From an uncultured Bdellovibrionales bacterium (lineage in GTDB: Bacteria; Bdellovibrionota; FAC87; UBA2466): 64,000 bases of DNA. Of this stretch, positions 18,892-25,091 are shown piece after piece; the first letter of the stretch is position 1; every line of letters starts with the position of its first letter. The translations under genes and the position numbers were made by a program. The stretch is from NCBI GenBank assembly GCA_937903155.1, contig CALCZU010000131.1, positions 46,704-110,703 on the forward strand, read 5' to 3'. Below the pieces are notes generated by a model. The model was not told the origin of the DNA. It saw nothing but the letters and a program-made list of their open reading frames with translations, and searched no databases.

Positions 18892-19890
18892 ATGATTCGG
18901 CTCCGCGCGTTTTTTGTTTTTTTTATTTTGGGTCACGTCGGCGTTGCGTCGGTGTCGGCTGGAGTCTGTCGTGCGGAGTTGGAGAAGCTCTTATGCACCC
19001 AACTGACGGGCTGTGTGAGAAGTGCACTCGCATCTTCCAAACATCCTATTCGAATGCTCTCAAATGAAGAGGCGATCAACGAGTTTGAGGACATGGTGTG
19101 GGCAGTTCAAACTCAGAGAGATGATGTCTATACCCCTGAGGGAGGTTATCCTGAATTCCCCGTTGCCATTTCTCTCCAAAACACAAATGTGGGACGCATT
19201 CATTCCAACCGAGTCCCCATCGGACGCGGAGGTGTGTATCGACAGGACTCTGAATTACGAGAGGTGAGTGAACGTGTCGAAGGGCTGGGCCGCTTCTTTT
19301 TCCATGAATCTCGCAGTCGGGTGGCTTTTAAATTAAAAGGCAAAGAAGCCATTGAGCCGTTCATTTTAGAGGCTTTGGAGCAATCGAAAATTCCAAACCC
19401 CGCTTACCGCCTTCCCGCAACGACCGAAATGGTTTATCCCGAAGAACCGAATCCGGTCACGGGCCGTTCTTCAGCGTTTCGCAAGTGGGTAGAGATTACG
19501 GCTTTTTCTGGCCTCACGGTGTCGCCAACGCTAGCATTCCCCGTCTTTATGATTGCGGCGCTTGCCCGCGACGTCCCCGTGGCATTGCTTGCGGCTGGAA
19601 CAGCAATGGCGCACTACGTGGTTAGCTTTGCGATTCGATGGGTGTTAATCGACTCTAGTTGGCAGATGCGCTACGAGTTTGAAAACGTCCTTCCTGCTTT
19701 TCAACACCGTTTTATTTTGGAAGACATTCAGGAATTTTTACGAGATAAAGATCGCGAAAAAGCATCTTCTGAACCGGGAAAAAAATATCACTATTTCTAC
19801 GGGATTACTTCCGAAGAGGGCCAACACTTCGATTTCCTATTCTATGAAGAAAACGGAGTTCCTTCGCTAGTTGTCTTCAGCTCGATTTAG
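18892..19890 (+). CDS. hypothetical protein with signal peptide and internal TM helices
   Basis: 332 aa; N-terminal hydrophobic leader; two hydrophobic segments near residues 200-250. Confidence 0.45.
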   Translation: MIRLRAFFVFFILGHVGVASVSAGVCRAELEKLLCTQLTGCVRSALASSKHPIRMLSNEEAINEFEDMVWAVQTQRDDVYTPEGGYPEFPVAISLQNTNVGRIHSNRVPIGRGGVYRQDSELREVSERVEGLGRFFFHESRSRVAFKLKGKEAIEPFILEALEQSKIPNPAYRLPATTEMVYPEEPNPVTGRSSAFRKWVEITAFSGLTVSPTLAFPVFMIAALARDVPVALLAAGTAMAHYVVSFAIRWVLIDSSWQMRYEFENVLPAFQHRFILEDIQEFLRDKDREKASSEPGKKYHYFYGITSEEGQHFDFLFYEENGVPSLVVFSSI

Positions 19891-20830
19891 AGGGCTCCTC
19901 AAAGTAGCGTTGGAGCTTTAAGATCTCTTCTTGGGCGTTGGGAGCCCAAATCCAATAGTACAAATTGCGGGCGTAGTTTGCGCCGATTCTCAATTTGTCT
20001 TTTTCTTTTCCTCGGCCCAGCCAGACGCGCTTGTAACCTTCGCGCTCGGCGAGTTCGAAAAGATCGAGATAAGCAGTTGTATATAAATTATGTTTCGGTT
20101 CGACTTTTTCGTGGTCGATTCCTTGAGTGGCATAGAAAAGTTCTTTATTTGTTCGGTCGTCATAGCAGAAGAGCGCTTGCACCGCGATTCCTTGCCTATT
20201 TCGTCTTAAAAATATGCGGATGGAATCTGAGATCGAAGATTCCAAAAGCTGTTTTAAACTAGATTCCTGGTAGAGAGCGGTCTTCGCGCCATGTTTTTCG
20301 GAGTTTAATAAAAGCAAACGAACGACTTCGCTAAAGAGGTCGGTTTGTTGAAGAAGTTGGTTCGTATTGAGTGACTCCAAAATATACTCTTCTTGAACGC
20401 GTCTCCGGAGTCTCAGGAGTTCACGCGCGTCTTTTCCTCCCAATCTTGATTTCAGAGTACCTTCGAGGTCGCCCACAATTTCGTAAGCCGTTTCCACAAA
20501 GGCCGGGATACTTCCAAAGCCGATTTTCTCTGCTTCGGGGGTTACGGGTTCCGTTACTCCTGGGATGAGGACTGGGGTAGGGTTTTTAGGATCGCACCAA
20601 AGCGACATTTCTTCGGAGGTTGGAACCGGGGTCGAGAAATTGAAAAAATAACCTCCGCGAATCCATGTTTCTTTCTCACACAATTTGGGAACTCTTACCG
20701 GGGTATTCTTCAGCATGGCTTGCCAATAGAGATTGTCTTTTAGTCGGCATCTCGAATCGTGAAGTCCGTTAACGTTTTTAAAAACGCTCTCCGCGACCGA
20801 AAGAAAAGGCTTCTCGTGCATCCAGTTCAT
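19877..20830 (-). CDS. FemAB-like GNAT-fold transferase (COG3146 / DUF482-like)
   Basis: C-terminal half shows the pattern of COG3146-family proteins (…LFCYDDRTNKELFYATQGIDHEK…YLDLFELAEREGYKRVWLGRGKEKDKLRIGANYARNLYYWIWAP). Overlaps the upstream gene by 4 bp. Confidence 0.5.
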   Translation of the reverse strand: MNWMHEKPFLSVAESVFKNVNGLHDSRCRLKDNLYWQAMLKNTPVRVPKLCEKETWIRGGYFFNFSTPVPTSEEMSLWCDPKNPTPVLIPGVTEPVTPEAEKIGFGSIPAFVETAYEIVGDLEGTLKSRLGGKDARELLRLRRRVQEEYILESLNTNQLLQQTDLFSEVVRLLLLNSEKHGAKTALYQESSLKQLLESSISDSIRIFLRRNRQGIAVQALFCYDDRTNKELFYATQGIDHEKVEPKHNLYTTAYLDLFELAEREGYKRVWLGRGKEKDKLRIGANYARNLYYWIWAPNAQEEILKLQRYFEEPSKSS

Positions 20831-21681
20831 TTTGTATTTCCGGAATTTTTATTCTTGAGAAAGAGCACTCCGCCTAAGAGAAGAATCAGGATCACCACAT
20901 TGAAGATGTAAAGTGGCGTGGGTTTCCAATCAAAGAGCAGATACTCTACAGGCAAAATCACGAGCGCTGTGATGAGTGCCGGGTATTCGGAGATTCCCAA
21001 CGGAAGAATGCGGTATCGATAGATGCTTAAGAAATAGACGAAGAAGAGTGCCACCCCACTGAGAAAACTAAACGCCCATAATCCAGGCGTCAGCGAAAGA
21101 AGTGTTACGCTCTTGGTTCCCATTCCACCGACAATCATGCAGGCAATTGCGGGCATGGCGGCTACGATGAAAGGGCCTTCTTTTTGCGTAGATGTTTTTA
21201 ACATCACAAACTCCGCAATGACTAAACCCGTACAAAGAAGCAAAAGGAGGTAACCGAGCAGTGGCTCAGACGCATCTCGGGTAAAAAACATAAAGACAAG
21301 CAAAGAAGCGAGCGAAAGACTGGCCAATGCTTTCTGAGTCCCGCTATACTTATCACCCAATCGCGGGAGTAAAATCATAATGGGGAGATAAGCTTTCGAG
21401 AATATCGAAACCGAAGTCGCGTTTAAGAGCTGAAAGGATTTTAAAATGAGCGTGTACGTTAAACCTCCATTCACTACACGGATCACTTGAAACTTCCACT
21501 CATTTGGCAAAAATGATCCCTTCGCAATCGCGTTTGCAATCAGAGCGGTGATAAAGCAACCCAGGCCCGAGAGAAATAACACTGTTGAGACTTCCAATCC
21601 TTGGATCATCAAGAATCGATACAGCAGGTCTCGAGTTGCCAAAACAAACGTAAACCCAAAAAAACCTAAAAAAACAGCCAT
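20827..21681 (-). CDS. DMT-superfamily (EamA-like) transporter, ~10 TM helices
   Basis: 284 aa, highly hydrophobic, with two-repeat topology; gene ends overlap its neighbours (operon). Confidence 0.55.
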   Translation of the reverse strand: MAVFLGFFGFTFVLATRDLLYRFLMIQGLEVSTVLFLSGLGCFITALIANAIAKGSFLPNEWKFQVIRVVNGGLTYTLILKSFQLLNATSVSIFSKAYLPIMILLPRLGDKYSGTQKALASLSLASLLVFMFFTRDASEPLLGYLLLLLCTGLVIAEFVMLKTSTQKEGPFIVAAMPAIACMIVGGMGTKSVTLLSLTPGLWAFSFLSGVALFFVYFLSIYRYRILPLGISEYPALITALVILPVEYLLFDWKPTPLYIFNVVILILLLGGVLFLKNKNSGNTK

Positions 21682-21683
21682 GA

Positions 21684-22670
21684 CTATTTCCTCGCTTCAA
21701 TAATAGAAAGACCACGGGGTTGGCCCAAGTTTTTCCAAACGGCAGATTGAAAACCGACTTCTTTGCACCAAGTTTCCAATTCTTTGTGCGTGTAACTGTT
21801 TCCTCCTCGCGTGGTGACGAGCATCCTCACAGCGAAAGCGGCCGGGAAGGGAGGGGTTGTTCCCGTTTCATCGGGAATGAAATCGTGGATCCAAAGAACG
21901 CCTCCTGGTCTCAAAGCTTGGTACGCTTTTTTTAAAAGCATGAGATTTTCTTCGTAACTATGGGAGTGAACGATATGAGAAATCAGTGCACCGTCGAAGT
22001 TTTCTGGAAACAAGTCTTTGTAAAAATCTCCGCCGAAAAGGTGAATACGATTTGCGACATCAGGATAAAACTCCTCGATGATTTCTTTAGTAGTTTTGAG
22101 CGTACTCTCCATATCAAAAAGAGTGGCTTCGACATTGGCTTGCTCGGTACAAAGGAGCGCGGAGTAGGTGCCCGGACCCGCTCCGATATCCAAAAACTTG
22201 GCTTTTCGTTCGAGCTTTGGGAAATTTTTTGCGAGGATAGGCGCATTGTGCAAAGCAGTGCTATGCATCGCGCGAATAAAGGAGCGATTCTCTTCTGGGG
22301 ACGAAAAGAAATGCCCCGTCGGTAAATGACTTTTTCCAGTTTTAACGATTTCCGGAAGATCTCCGAGTTGTCCCCAAAGATTATCAATATGTTCCAACAT
22401 CGAGTTCACATTCTGCGCATGGGAACTATCGATGGCAGGGCTCAAGTCGCCGTATATTCCATCTTTCACGGAAAGAAGGTCCATGCTGGCTGCGACTTTT
22501 AGGATGATTTCCACCGAGCGCTTGTCTAATCCCAGGTCCGACGCAACTTCTGCGGCTGTTTTATGAGCGTTTCGAATCGGATCGAAAATTTTTAAACGCG
22601 TTCCCGTTAAAACTGCTTTCAGGGAAAAGACAGAATTCATTTTTTCAACAAGTGTATCAGGTGCCAACAT
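21684..22670 (-). CDS. class I SAM-dependent O-methyltransferase (dimerisation domain + MT domain)
   Basis: Motif I LDIGAGPGTYSALL; post-I acidic residue and motifs II/III. N-terminal winged-helix dimerisation region typical of small-molecule O-methyltransferases. Confidence 0.75.
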   Translation of the reverse strand: MLAPDTLVEKMNSVFSLKAVLTGTRLKIFDPIRNAHKTAAEVASDLGLDKRSVEIILKVAASMDLLSVKDGIYGDLSPAIDSSHAQNVNSMLEHIDNLWGQLGDLPEIVKTGKSHLPTGHFFSSPEENRSFIRAMHSTALHNAPILAKNFPKLERKAKFLDIGAGPGTYSALLCTEQANVEATLFDMESTLKTTKEIIEEFYPDVANRIHLFGGDFYKDLFPENFDGALISHIVHSHSYEENLMLLKKAYQALRPGGVLWIHDFIPDETGTTPPFPAAFAVRMLVTTRGGNSYTHKELETWCKEVGFQSAVWKNLGQPRGLSIIEARK

Positions 22671-23727
22671 TTTTCTTCCCCTTAGTTAAAATTTCGCGGA
22701 TTGCTTGAATCAAACTTTTTAATTCAGTGGTTTCGGTGAGCGTAATTCGAACGGCGTTGGATAGACTGGGGCCGATTTCTTTTACGATATAACCCCGGCG
22801 AAGCATCTCTCGATAAAATCCGCTGCTGTCAGAGGTTTCAAAAAGAACGGTGTTGCCTTCCGAAGGGTAGACTTTTACTCCGTGTTCTTGTAGCTCTTGC
22901 GAAACGGCGTTTCTTAAGCTTCGAATTTTCTCTCTTAACTTCAATACGGGTTCTATTTTTTTCAAGCGCCGGATCAGGTAGTCCTGGACGATTTGAGAGA
23001 CGGGAAAAGGTGGACAAAGGAGCGTGACCGCTCGGATGACGGAAGGATCCGCAATAATCACCCCGGCTCTCAGTCCGGCGAGCCCCCAAGATTTCGAAAA
23101 CGAACGCGTAATCACTAAATTCGGAAAAAAATGTAAGAGCCTCAGTGCAGATTCTTTATCTGAAAATTCAAAGTAAGCCTCGTCGACGACGATGATTCCC
23201 GAGAATCGAAGACAGAGCCTTTTCAGATCGTCGAGATGCAGAATCGTCCCGAGTGGATTATTGGGACGGTCGATAAAAATCATTTTCAGATGATTTGGAA
23301 TCTTTGAAACGTCTAGCCGGTTTAAATCACATCCTGCGAGCTCTAATGGAACTGCATTCACTCCATTTAACTTTGCAAGCCGTTCGTAAAACCAAAACCC
23401 TGGGTTTAAAAACCCAATCGAGTCTTTGGCTCTTGTAAAACTGCGCAAGAGAAGGTCGAGCGCGAAGTCCGAACCGGGCGTCAAGAATAAATAGGGAGTG
23501 AATACTTCCACGCCGCTTTGTGCTTTCAGGTAGGAGGAGTAAAGACCCAAGATCTTTTCGTTGGGAGATTTTGGGTAAAAAGAATACGGCGTTTGGATGC
23601 TGAGTTCAGTCAAATCCAAACGAATGGAGTGGGGCGCTATTCCTTTTGGCGGAACGTGAAGTGCTAAAGGCTGGAGCGATTTTAATTCTTTTCTAGCAAG
23701 TGGATGCATGCGAATTCCGTCAGTCAT
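22657..23727 (-). CDS. PLP-dependent class I/II aminotransferase (HisC/CobD-like)
   Basis: Fold-type I region with the PLP-lysine motif (FSKSWGLAGLRAGVIIADP). ~356 aa, typical of the histidinol-phosphate aminotransferase / threonine-phosphate decarboxylase subfamily. Confidence 0.8.
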   Translation of the reverse strand: MTDGIRMHPLARKELKSLQPLALHVPPKGIAPHSIRLDLTELSIQTPYSFYPKSPNEKILGLYSSYLKAQSGVEVFTPYLFLTPGSDFALDLLLRSFTRAKDSIGFLNPGFWFYERLAKLNGVNAVPLELAGCDLNRLDVSKIPNHLKMIFIDRPNNPLGTILHLDDLKRLCLRFSGIIVVDEAYFEFSDKESALRLLHFFPNLVITRSFSKSWGLAGLRAGVIIADPSVIRAVTLLCPPFPVSQIVQDYLIRRLKKIEPVLKLREKIRSLRNAVSQELQEHGVKVYPSEGNTVLFETSDSSGFYREMLRRGYIVKEIGPSLSNAVRITLTETTELKSLIQAIREILTKGKKNVGT

Positions 23728-24832
23728 TTAAAGTGAGCAAGGTTGCAACACGTGAAAACATTTGGCCGAGGACTATCCATGCCTGGTCATGAACTTCCGC
23801 TAATCTTTGGTATTCTTTAGGACTCAGACACTCTAACAACTCCGCGCCGATGTCTGCGTGAGAGAGAGCGCCTCCATCGAGTTCCAAATGCAAGTTGAAG
23901 TGACCTCGAGCCGTCGAGGGATCAAAAATCCCAGCCATCTTTTTATAAAACACATTCGCTGAGCGCTCGACGACCCAGTGGACGATGAGAAGTTTTTCAG
24001 CGTCGGAAGACGAGAGCATTTTCGACGGAAACCAATTACTAAGAGCGTCCAGTTCTGCGTCCCAAACAGAGGCTTGAGAATGACTCTTTCGCAATTGAAC
24101 ATTGTGGCCCACTTCTTCTTGCAAATGCGCTTCGGCGACCACTCGATAATCGGGGAGGTGAGTAAAAGCGGCGCGCGTGAGCACCATTTTTTGAAAAGCA
24201 TCCGACCAACATTGAAAGAGTCCTAGAAAACGTTTCCTGTTATTCTCATTTTTCAAATACCCAGAATCCGCTAAGTCAAAAAGCGAATTTTCGGAAAATC
24301 GTTCTTGAGCTTCTAAATTGAGTTTCTTTAAACTTTCAAGGGTGTCAGCTTTTGCCTTCTCAATGGATAAGCGAGGTTTCTTGCCTGAAGAGAATTCGAC
24401 TAACGCTTGTGACGGCTCTTCGTAAAGTCCCCGTTGTTCAAACTGAATCGACAGTCCCCAAAAACCGTCTTGTCCCGCACCAATAAAACCGTGTTCGCAA
24501 GTGGGAGGAACAAGAAGGGCATCGCCCGCAGTGAGCATGGTTTCTAGATCGCCTAAAGATTTGGCTTGTCCTTGGCAGATTAAAATCATCGAACTAATGG
24601 GATGACGGTGAGAATCTAACACCTCGCCGCTTTGCAAACGCACCCAGCTCATTGCGAGTCTGCTGTTGTCAGGGATGAAGCGCGCAAGCTCTTTGCTCTC
24701 GCGAAAGTCTTTTAAGATTCCGAGATTGTGCGCACCGTCTCCTTGAATCACTACATGAAGACTGGGAATATCACGTCTGCGAACGACTTGAACTTTTTCT
24801 AGATCCTTGATTTGTGGATAAGCACATTTCAT
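23720..24832 (-). CDS. didomain oxygenase: N-terminal cupin (His-ligand motifs) fused to C-terminal haem-oxygenase-like (HDO / PqqC-TenA-CADD superfamily) domain
   Basis: Cupin motifs GEVLDSHRHPISS…G and GDALLVPPTCEHGF. C-terminal helical domain has the ExxH-type ligand pattern (HLQEEVGHN, HWVVERSA…). Start set at Met24 (AGGGAG RBS 6 nt upstream); the longer 24901 start would overlap the predicted sigma-54 promoter. Confidence 0.5.
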   Translation of the reverse strand: MKCAYPQIKDLEKVQVVRRRDIPSLHVVIQGDGAHNLGILKDFRESKELARFIPDNSRLAMSWVRLQSGEVLDSHRHPISSMILICQGQAKSLGDLETMLTAGDALLVPPTCEHGFIGAGQDGFWGLSIQFEQRGLYEEPSQALVEFSSGKKPRLSIEKAKADTLESLKKLNLEAQERFSENSLFDLADSGYLKNENNRKRFLGLFQCWSDAFQKMVLTRAAFTHLPDYRVVAEAHLQEEVGHNVQLRKSHSQASVWDAELDALSNWFPSKMLSSSDAEKLLIVHWVVERSANVFYKKMAGIFDPSTARGHFNLHLELDGGALSHADIGAELLECLSPKEYQRLAEVHDQAWIVLGQMFSRVATLLTLND

Positions 24833-24881
24833 TTCCATCTCCCTAAACAGCGACCTTTTTCGCTTGATAGGAAACAGAGAG

Positions 24882-24898
24882 AGCAAAAGCCGGGCCAG
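24882..24898 (-). promoter_or_regulatory. sigma-54 promoter of the six-gene operon (minus-strand TGGCCCGGCTTTTGCT)
   Basis: One mismatch to TGGCACG-N4-TTGCW at exact spacing. Predicted TSS ~40 nt upstream of the relocated ATG 24832. Confidence 0.55.
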
Positions 24899-24947: not shown

Positions 24948-24968
24948 TTAGTCGAAGTTTTGAGACGG
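24948..24968. promoter_or_regulatory. perfect 8-5-8 palindrome TTTTGAGAcggccTCTCAAAA (candidate enhancer/UAS for a bEBP)
   Basis: Centred ~85 bp upstream of the predicted TSS of the sigma-54 operon promoter, the classical position for an NtrC-family activator site. Confidence 0.3.
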
Positions 24969-25091
24969 CCTCTCAAAAACGAGATTTGGTGCAAATCCAT
25001 TATCTTTTGATCTCGCAACTTTCTTCTCCGAAACCGTTCTTCTTTGACCGCACGCGAAGGATCTGATGAGTTTGTGGAAACAGGAGGCACT

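Follow-up and report, generated by a model that had tools for sequence, protein, structure and literature searches.

What kind of enzyme is formed when a cupin domain precedes a haem-oxygenase-like domain in the same polypeptide chain? This question is raised by a minus-strand gene at positions 23720-24832 of a 64,000-nucleotide stretch of DNA from an uncultured Bdellovibrionales bacterium (contig CALCZU010000131.1; the whole stretch is referred to below as the window). The gene encodes a protein of 370 amino acids consisting of an N-terminal cupin domain and a C-terminal domain of the haem-oxygenase-like (HDO) type, and it leads a group of five closely packed, partly overlapping genes on the minus strand. 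On balance, the product seems to be a bifunctional non-haem metalloenzyme, in which a cupin and a diiron HDO site oxidize an amino-acid-derived molecule within a five-gene operon. An earlier note on this DNA, prepared from the sequence, had proposed the fusion, and its claims are taken up below where the results bear on them.

Domain architecture and predicted metal sites

The fusion gene and its parts are located as follows:
23720-24832, minus strand: cupin-HDO fusion gene, 370 amino acids plus stop, preferred start ATG 24832
24428-24793, minus strand: cupin domain, residues 14-135, supported by the Cupin_2 match, AlphaFold2 strands, Foldseek matches and family conservation
24602-24610, minus strand: cupin residues H75 and H77
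24491-24493, minus strand: cupin residue H114
24353-24427, minus strand: interdomain linker, residues 136-160, in which the predicted local distance difference test score (pLDDT) of residues 151-159 is below 50
23723-24352, minus strand: haem-oxygenase-like (HDO-type) helical domain, residues 161-370, based on the model, Foldseek and the PF14518 matches of the family
24104-24127, minus strand: helix segment H236-L-Q-E239-E240-V-G-H243, carrying the predicted ExxH ligand pair and an additional invariant residue, H236
23966-23968, minus strand: E289, predicted to be the carboxylate ligand contributed by the second of the three ligand-bearing helices
23858-23890, minus strand: third ligand-bearing helix, H315-LEL-D319-GGALS-H325 (family consensus H-x3-D-x2-H)

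The N-terminal half matches the Pfam model Cupin_2 at residues 63-121 (E=1.6e-6, 28.2 bits as against a cutoff of 27.2). In the full-length AlphaFold2 model (mean pLDDT 86.7), residues 15-130 are all-beta, and only cupins were retrieved when this model was compared with the Protein Data Bank (PDB) using Foldseek. The first cupin motif reads G69-x5-H75-R-H77 and the second one P109-P-T-C-E-H114 (P-x4-H). The statement in the earlier note that both canonical motifs are present was thus exact in the case of G-x5-HRH, but not in that of P-x-G-x2-H, where Thr replaces the Gly, which is the majority residue of the family at this position (54/93). Among the 93 fused N-termini, H75 is conserved in 76, H77 in 80 and H114 in 73, and other invariant or near-invariant residues include G88, G103 and D104. 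In place of the canonical Glu stands Ser81, and Ser is found there in 78 of these 93 relatives, which rules out a canonical His-His-Glu-His metal site; the residues present define a three-His site. Judging from these residues, it can be expected to hold one metal ion, which is probably Fe(II).

As the Foldseek results obtained with the full-length model were dominated by cupins, residues ~161-370 were modelled separately. The model of the isolated domain is all-helical (pLDDT 90.3; predicted template modelling score, pTM, 0.88), and its top PDB matches, with template modelling (TM) scores of 0.5-0.7, are all haem-oxygenase-like, UndA ranking first, together with AetD (TM ~0.68), TenA, CADD/CT610 and haem oxygenases. 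That the C-terminal half is HDO-like, as the earlier note had proposed, is borne out by this comparison, in which only haem-oxygenase-like folds were found. At the sequence level, residues ~161-370 gave no Pfam or NCBIfam match and no PDB sequence match; PDB searches performed with the sequence itself and with profiles of 15 and of 47 sequences detected no haem-oxygenase-like relative of the domain, and only cupins were present among the matches listed for the full-length family profile. At E<=0.01, PF14518 (Haem_oxygenas_2, 'iron-containing redox enzyme') matches 49 of the 139 family members scanned, across the ligand-bearing helices. The sole member exceeding the gathering score of 28.9 bits is P0097 (35.7 bits), the window protein and most of the family being below this threshold.

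Conservation was assessed in an alignment of 154 full C-terminal domains. Residues H236, E240, H243, D258, E289, H315, H325 and W352 are invariant (154/154), D319 is kept in 152, and position 239 is acidic in 98% of the domains. No Cys residue is conserved, the highest share of Cys in any column being 41%. The candidate ligands are thus distributed over three helices: E240-x2-H243 on the first, E289 on the second and H315-x3-D319-x2-H on the third. The pattern that defines HDOs is a 3-His/3-carboxylate (3H/3C) set on three core helices, and the third-helix ligands of SznF, His311/Asp315/His318, show the same H-x3-D-x2-H spacing. The sequence of the C-terminal domain therefore matches the pattern of an HDO-type 3-His/3-carboxylate diiron ligand set. 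Sets of the 3H/3C type bind two irons and activate O2 in UndA, AetD, BesC, HrmI and SznF. The ExxH motif noticed earlier is E240-x2-H243, and the predicted six-residue diiron ligand set is indeed conserved, five of its residues in all the domains and D319 in all but two. A TenA-type thiaminase was also considered and rejected, since the His/carboxylate set is invariant and no Cys is conserved. The fold, the invariant ligands, the lack of a conserved Cys and the PF14518 matches all speak for an HDO-like domain carrying ligands, and not for a different fold or a ligand-free TenA-type protein.

The family and its characterized relatives

A profile search with the C-terminal domain in 1.84 billion cluster representatives yielded 351 proteins at E<=1e-3, 273 of them at E<=1e-10; the clusters were counted at 50% identity, and the family thus comprises at least 351. 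In the 153 full-domain representatives, N-terminal extensions of ~150 amino acids are present in 98, of ~300 in six and of more than 350 in three, and the remaining 46 are stand-alone HDO domains. The arrangement of an N-terminal cupin and a C-terminal HDO-type domain, put forward in the earlier note, is confirmed by Pfam, the fold, the ligands and the recurrence of the extension in 98 of the 153 relatives. Cupin_2 matches 81 of the 139 members scanned and most of the fused ones; many members also match AraC_binding, a ligand-sensing cupin family, and one weakly matches TENA_THI-4. Other architectures were found as well among the long members sampled: the HDO domain is fused to a styrene-monooxygenase-like flavoprotein in P0044, P0049 and P0121 (about 640 amino acids) and to two cupins in P0097, P0115, P0125 and P0160 (about 505-525 amino acids), and in P0021 (683 amino acids) the HDO profile matches three stretches, accompanied by two cupin regions. 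Poorly annotated and uncharacterized, the family forms a distinct branch of the HDO superfamily, and the cupin-HDO protein, as a member of this rare family, constitutes a new architectural variant in the superfamily. Since its HDO domain goes largely undetected by the current Pfam models, the family is probably under-represented in surveys of HDOs based on InterPro.

Stand-alone homologues of the HDO domain (32-36% identity) occur in Rickettsia spp. and in a metagenome-assembled genome (MAG) of Pseudomonadota (loci L037-L044; for example, L043 10121-10576). The Rickettsia homologues are kept in many genomes, beside murJ and a TraX-like gene, and CADD, the para-aminobenzoate synthase of Chlamydia, provides an analogy for them. 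On the metagenomic contig L004 (1898-3037 and 7326-8423), the cupin-HDO homologue P0017 is accompanied, ~4 kb upstream, by a second protein of 379 amino acids with a weak Cupin_2 match, and the genes between the two encode an AMP-binding enzyme and a Toluene_X outer-membrane channel.

The closest precedent for the combination of domains is SznF, which likewise carries an HDO domain and a cupin in one chain, with H-x3-D-x2-H spacing on the third ligand helix. The cupin of SznF also has a three-His iron site, and both centres are used for consecutive steps. Their order is different: SznF consists of an N-terminal helical domain, the HDO domain and a C-terminal cupin, whereas in the window protein the cupin comes first. 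The opposite domain order noted earlier agrees with a 2026 review of HDOs, in which SznF is the only characterized HDO with a fused cupin, located C-terminally. No description of an enzyme with an N-terminal cupin and an HDO domain was found in the literature. The ligands differ too, since the site of SznF is of the 3H/4C type, the extra Glu coming from an auxiliary helix that precedes the ligand helices. In the cupin-HDO family, no acidic residue is conserved at positions 161-235, where the conserved residues are N172, S210, F213, Q214 and R220; E239 and D258 are conserved, but they lie outside the position of the extra Glu. SznF is not among the PDB sequence or fold matches listed, and its gene context differs from that of the family. 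An SznF-like identity was rejected in view of the domain order, the type of ligands and the lack of specific similarity: the cupin-HDO protein arose by a separate fusion and is no permuted form of SznF.

Two single-domain groups of HDOs were also compared. In the structural comparison, AetD ranks with the best matches of the C-terminal domain. Like SktA, it acts on halogenated tryptophan with 3H/3C ligands, and a cyanobacterial sister cluster of the window operon encodes a Trp halogenase; AetD and SktA differ from the window protein, however, in that they have no cupin, the structure-based identity is ~15%, and there is no match at the level of hidden Markov models. UndA, the top Foldseek match, is a 3H/3C fatty-acid oxidative decarboxylase whose ligand pair, E101/H104, shows the same E-x2-H spacing as the window protein. 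It differs in its single-domain structure, its fatty-acid substrate, the lack of detectable sequence similarity and the absence of the family residues H236, E239 and D258.

Functional validation is available for only about a dozen HDOs, nearly all of which gave new chemistry (alkene, alkyne, nitrile, azetidine or N-nitrosourea formation). The window operon, the related clusters encoding a halogenase, a hydroxylase or ligases, and the Rieske-linked clade described below are thus targets in the search for new O2-dependent reactions and metabolites, which makes them of interest to those working on metalloenzymes and natural products.

Gene context, proposed function and alternatives

The four genes that follow the fusion gene are:
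22657-23727, minus strand: HisC-family aminotransferase dependent on pyridoxal phosphate, whose start overlaps the stop of the fusion gene by 8 nt
21684-22670, minus strand: family-2 methyltransferase using S-adenosylmethionine (SAM), with a dimerisation domain (Pfam Methyltransf_2 and Dimerisation)
20827-21681, minus strand: polytopic membrane protein with about 8-10 hydrophobic segments in a hydropathy scan and no Pfam match
19877-20830, minus strand: rare conserved protein of 317 amino acids, encoded by the last gene of the operon

The aminotransferase matches Pfam Aminotran_1_2 (E=3.5e-38), and its best PDB matches are HisC. Its score with TIGR01141, 208.8 bits, is below the equivalog cutoff of 276.55; the housekeeping HisC identity was rejected on this basis, and the protein is a paralogue belonging to the HisC family. 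The best PDB match of the methyltransferase is SibL, which scores slightly better than the next ones, the 4-methylthio-2-hydroxybutyrate (MTHB) S-methyltransferases DsyB/DSYB (4e-21), all of these matches being at about 1e-21; as to a relation to keto-acid C-methyltransferases, TIGR04543 gave only E=0.006, and this match is limited to the SAM motif. The membrane protein is, from its hydropathy, probably a permease or exporter. The 317-amino-acid protein gave no Pfam, NCBIfam or PDB match, either alone or as a profile, and only four relatives were found among 5.8 billion clusters, one of which is named CelD/BcsL-family by JGI. It shows a conserved NLY...LGRG...K...GAN motif and may possibly be a CelD/BioF2-like acyltransferase. 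It co-occurs with cupin-HDO genes in four loci, its homologues adjoining them in L045, L011 and L030, and within the clade a family-2 methyltransferase is often present as well.

An orthologous aminotransferase gene is directly adjacent to the cupin-HDO gene in all six recovered loci of the clade (L045, L006/L007, L011, L030 and L031). The combination of the cupin-HDO, aminotransferase and CelD-like genes is present in the window organism, a cyanobacterial MAG and a 'Deltaproteobacteria' MAG, and in a Verrucomicrobiales MAG only the pair formed with the aminotransferase was found. Additional genes of the Aphanothece locus (L011) encode a Trp halogenase (E=6.7e-147), a monooxygenase dependent on flavin adenine dinucleotide, an O-methyltransferase and two ATP-grasp ligases, and those of the Deltaproteobacteria locus (L030) a biopterin-dependent aromatic amino-acid hydroxylase, methyltransferases, an L-amino-acid ligase and an ATP-binding cassette exporter. 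In Legionella longbeachae, the neighbours of the cupin-HDO gene encode a dehydrogenase resembling lactate and malate dehydrogenases (LDH/MDH-like) and a transporter of the major facilitator superfamily (MFS). The chemistry common to the aminotransferase and the Legionella dehydrogenase partners is that of a 2-oxo acid, which the former interconverts with an amino acid and the latter with a 2-hydroxy acid.

Three enzyme types found in the window operon, an aminotransferase, a methyltransferase and a cupin, are clustered likewise in the cassettes producing beta-methyl amino acids (MarG/MarI/MarH and StnR/StnQ1/StnK3), which act on indolepyruvate, an aromatic 2-oxo acid. The cupins of these cassettes are small stand-alone epimerases without any HDO domain.

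Elsewhere in the window, a D-isomer-specific 2-hydroxyacid dehydrogenase is encoded on the plus strand at 14220-15215, 5 kb from the operon and on the opposite strand; a 2-oxo acid might be its product or its substrate. At 28933-31864 (plus strand), genes encoding an MbnB/TglH/ChrH-family enzyme (DUF692/MNIO, E=3.6e-104), a DUF2063 protein and an M14 zinc carboxypeptidase follow one another, and from these matches the cassette looks like one for the modification of ribosomally synthesized and post-translationally modified peptides.

In the scheme that we propose, the five genes would be translationally coupled in the order cupin-HDO, HisC-like aminotransferase, family-2 methyltransferase, permease and CelD-like protein. 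The aminotransferase would interconvert an amino acid and its 2-oxo acid, on which the cupin-HDO enzyme would carry out one or two O2-dependent oxidations, O2 being used at the diiron (or Mn/Fe) site of the HDO domain and at the mononuclear cupin site. The carboxylate or the alpha-substituent of the substrate would bind the metals. In the 3H/3C HDOs characterized so far, the carboxylate or amine of the substrate is bound directly to Fe1, which fits amino-acid and 2-oxo-acid substrates. The methyltransferase might then tailor the product, the CelD-like protein possibly acylate or ligate it, and the permease export it. The tailoring enzymes of the related clusters point to an aromatic skeleton of the Trp, Tyr or Phe type, and by analogy with these clusters the substrate is probably a 2-oxo acid or amino acid derived from an aromatic amino acid. 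The presence of an aminotransferase and ligases in these contexts speaks against a nitrile or skatole as the end product, of the kind made by AetD and SktA. The data show the identity of the domains, the fold, the conservation of the ligands, the size of the family and the gene linkage, and from them we infer the metal content, the use of O2, the class of substrate and the order of the steps. Taken together, sequence and models would be consistent with the two-metal-centre oxidase suggested in the earlier note. More tentatively, the protein might be an independently evolved oxidase whose cupin and diiron sites act in sequence, with a chemistry new to either fold (such as a rearrangement preceded by oxidative decarboxylation or C-C cleavage), within an unrecognized biosynthetic cassette; this is possible, but we hold it with reserve.

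Several observations weigh against the reading of the protein as a bifunctional oxidase of this kind. To begin with the cupin, its His ligands are missing in ~20% of the fused relatives, so that this domain may lack a catalytic role in part of the family, and the pTM of the full-length model is 0.59, leaving the arrangement of the two domains undefined. Could the HDO domain alone be catalytic, the cupin serving to bind a substrate or effector or to mediate oligomerisation? The HDO ligands are conserved in 100% of the domains as against 73-80 of the 93 fused relatives in the case of the cupin His residues, the stand-alone HDO domains account for 46 of the 153 representatives, and many members match the ligand-sensing AraC_binding. 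However, all three His residues are kept in the window protein, a conservation of ~80% is still high, that of G88, G103 and D104 suggests that the cupin pocket is maintained, and variants with two cupins and an HDO domain exist. We regard a cupin without any catalytic role as unlikely, and bifunctionality as the better explanation.

The second point concerns the third ligand helix, in which the window protein has D319-x5-H325 (D-GGALS-H) where the family has D-x2-H. Among the 154 domains, only the window protein and its identical database twin have this spacing, longer by three residues, and judging from its place the insertion may either disturb the second metal site or be tolerated. AlphaFold2 breaks the helix at residues 321-324, with a pLDDT of ~70. 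HDOs in which the site has become mononuclear through changes in core alpha-3 are known (FlcD), and the window copy might similarly be decaying or neofunctionalized, with its second metal site disabled by an insertion that is unique in the alignment and accompanied by a broken helix of lower confidence. Every ligand residue is retained, however, and the reading frame is intact in a translationally coupled operon. Moreover, the alpha-3 helix of the HDO core is flexible and metal-dependent, being irregular and remodelling on metal binding even in SznF, so that the insertion may be tolerated; the lower pLDDT fits this known flexibility. A disabled copy therefore seems improbable.

The assignment of the C-terminal domain is itself open to objections: the E-values of its Foldseek matches are weak, from 6e-3 (best) to 9e-2, TenA scores level with the HDOs, and the window protein has no Pfam haem-oxygenase match even at E<=1. 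TenA binds no metal. If the domain were metal-free, as in TenA and PqqC, or haem-binding, the protein would be a cupin enzyme with a helical appendage, and the similar Foldseek scores of TenA homologues and true haem oxygenases, the missing PF14518 match of the window protein and the single weak match to TENA_THI-4 would be accounted for. We consider this very improbable, as E-x2-H, E and H-x3-D-x2-H are kept invariantly on three helices, which is the HDO signature, as there is no conserved Cys for a catalysis of the TenA type, and as PF14518 is matched by 49 of the 139 members and TENA_THI-4 by one.

The remaining objections concern the pathway. Most of the genome-derived homologues are found in another context, 25 loci carrying genes for the alpha and beta subunits of a Rieske oxygenase (L001, L002, L009-L027 and others, in Photorhabdus, Chromobacterium, Pseudoalteromonas rubra and Stellaceae, among others). 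In this clade, which is the largest of the genome-derived ones, the cupin-HDO gene is located directly upstream of the Rieske genes; many of the loci also encode a family-III CoA-transferase, TauD and an MFS transporter, and those of the Pseudoalteromonas type a flavin-containing monooxygenase instead. The Rieske-linked pathway differs from that of the window operon. The hint of an aromatic substrate comes from two distant loci (36-41% identity), and the window operon itself has no halogenase, hydroxylase or ligase. An operon making a compatible solute, a small sulfonium compound or another one, of the dimethylsulfoniopropionate type, in which transamination, 2-oxo acid reduction and DsyB-like S-methylation are followed by oxidative decarboxylation by the cupin-HDO protein at the 4-dimethylsulfonio-2-hydroxybutyrate (DMSHB) step, has hardly any probability in our view: DsyB/DSYB are the second-best PDB matches of the methyltransferase, the operon includes an aminotransferase, a 2-hydroxyacid dehydrogenase is present at 14220-15215 and an LDH-like neighbour in Legionella, UndA-type HDOs do perform oxidative decarboxylation, and the enzymes that decarboxylate DMSHB are largely unidentified apart from DsyD (PF04115), but the unrelated SibL scores slightly above DsyB, so that the similarity is at the family level only, the operon has no reductase, and the Trp halogenase, aromatic hydroxylase and amino-acid ligases of the sister clusters do not fit.

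Start codon and upstream elements

The open reading frame of the fusion gene, which ends with the stop codon TGA at 23722-23720, offers three candidate starts: TTG 24901 (393 amino acids), ATG 24838 (372 amino acids) and ATG 24832 (370 amino acids). The elements located in this region are:
24839-24844, minus strand: AGGGAG, a Shine-Dalgarno-like sequence, 6 nt before ATG 24832 and abutting ATG 24838
24882-24897, minus strand: sigma-54-type -24/-12 motif TGGCCCGGCTTTTGCT (TGGCCC-N5-TTGCT), on the coding strand of the cupin-HDO gene
24958-24978, no strand assigned: perfect palindrome TTTTGAGA-N5-TCTCAAAA, about 60-80 nt upstream of the -24 element

The 23 additional residues of the 393-amino-acid form show no conservation among the homologues. 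An identical 370-amino-acid protein (P0001) is present in the European Nucleotide Archive, and the NCBI gene call starts at ATG 24838, giving 372 amino acids. The sigma-54 motif falls within the open reading frame that starts with TTG, and if transcription began ~12 nt downstream of the motif, TTG 24901 could not serve as the start. The choice made in the earlier note of Met24 (24832) over the longer form is in agreement with the spacing of the ribosome-binding site, the position of the sigma-54 motif, the N-termini of the homologues and the database gene calls, and it is reasonable to prefer the short start.

The pattern TGGCNC-N5-TTGCW has a single match within the window, 0.36 being expected by chance. 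No sigma-70-like site was found upstream of the cupin-HDO gene, and no Rfam element was detected within the 64-kb window. Upstream of the homologous cupin-HDO loci, no conservation of the sigma-54 motif was found, and the motif therefore says nothing about the family. A gene encoding an NtrC-type sigma-54-dependent response regulator is located at 4709-6148 (minus strand), which indicates that the organism has an activator working with sigma-54. The palindrome at 24958-24978 might, speculatively, be the binding site of an activator (enhancer-binding) protein, and it could also have arisen by chance. A gene encoding a hybrid PAS histidine kinase (3102-4712, plus strand) converges on that of the response regulator, ~19 kb from the operon.

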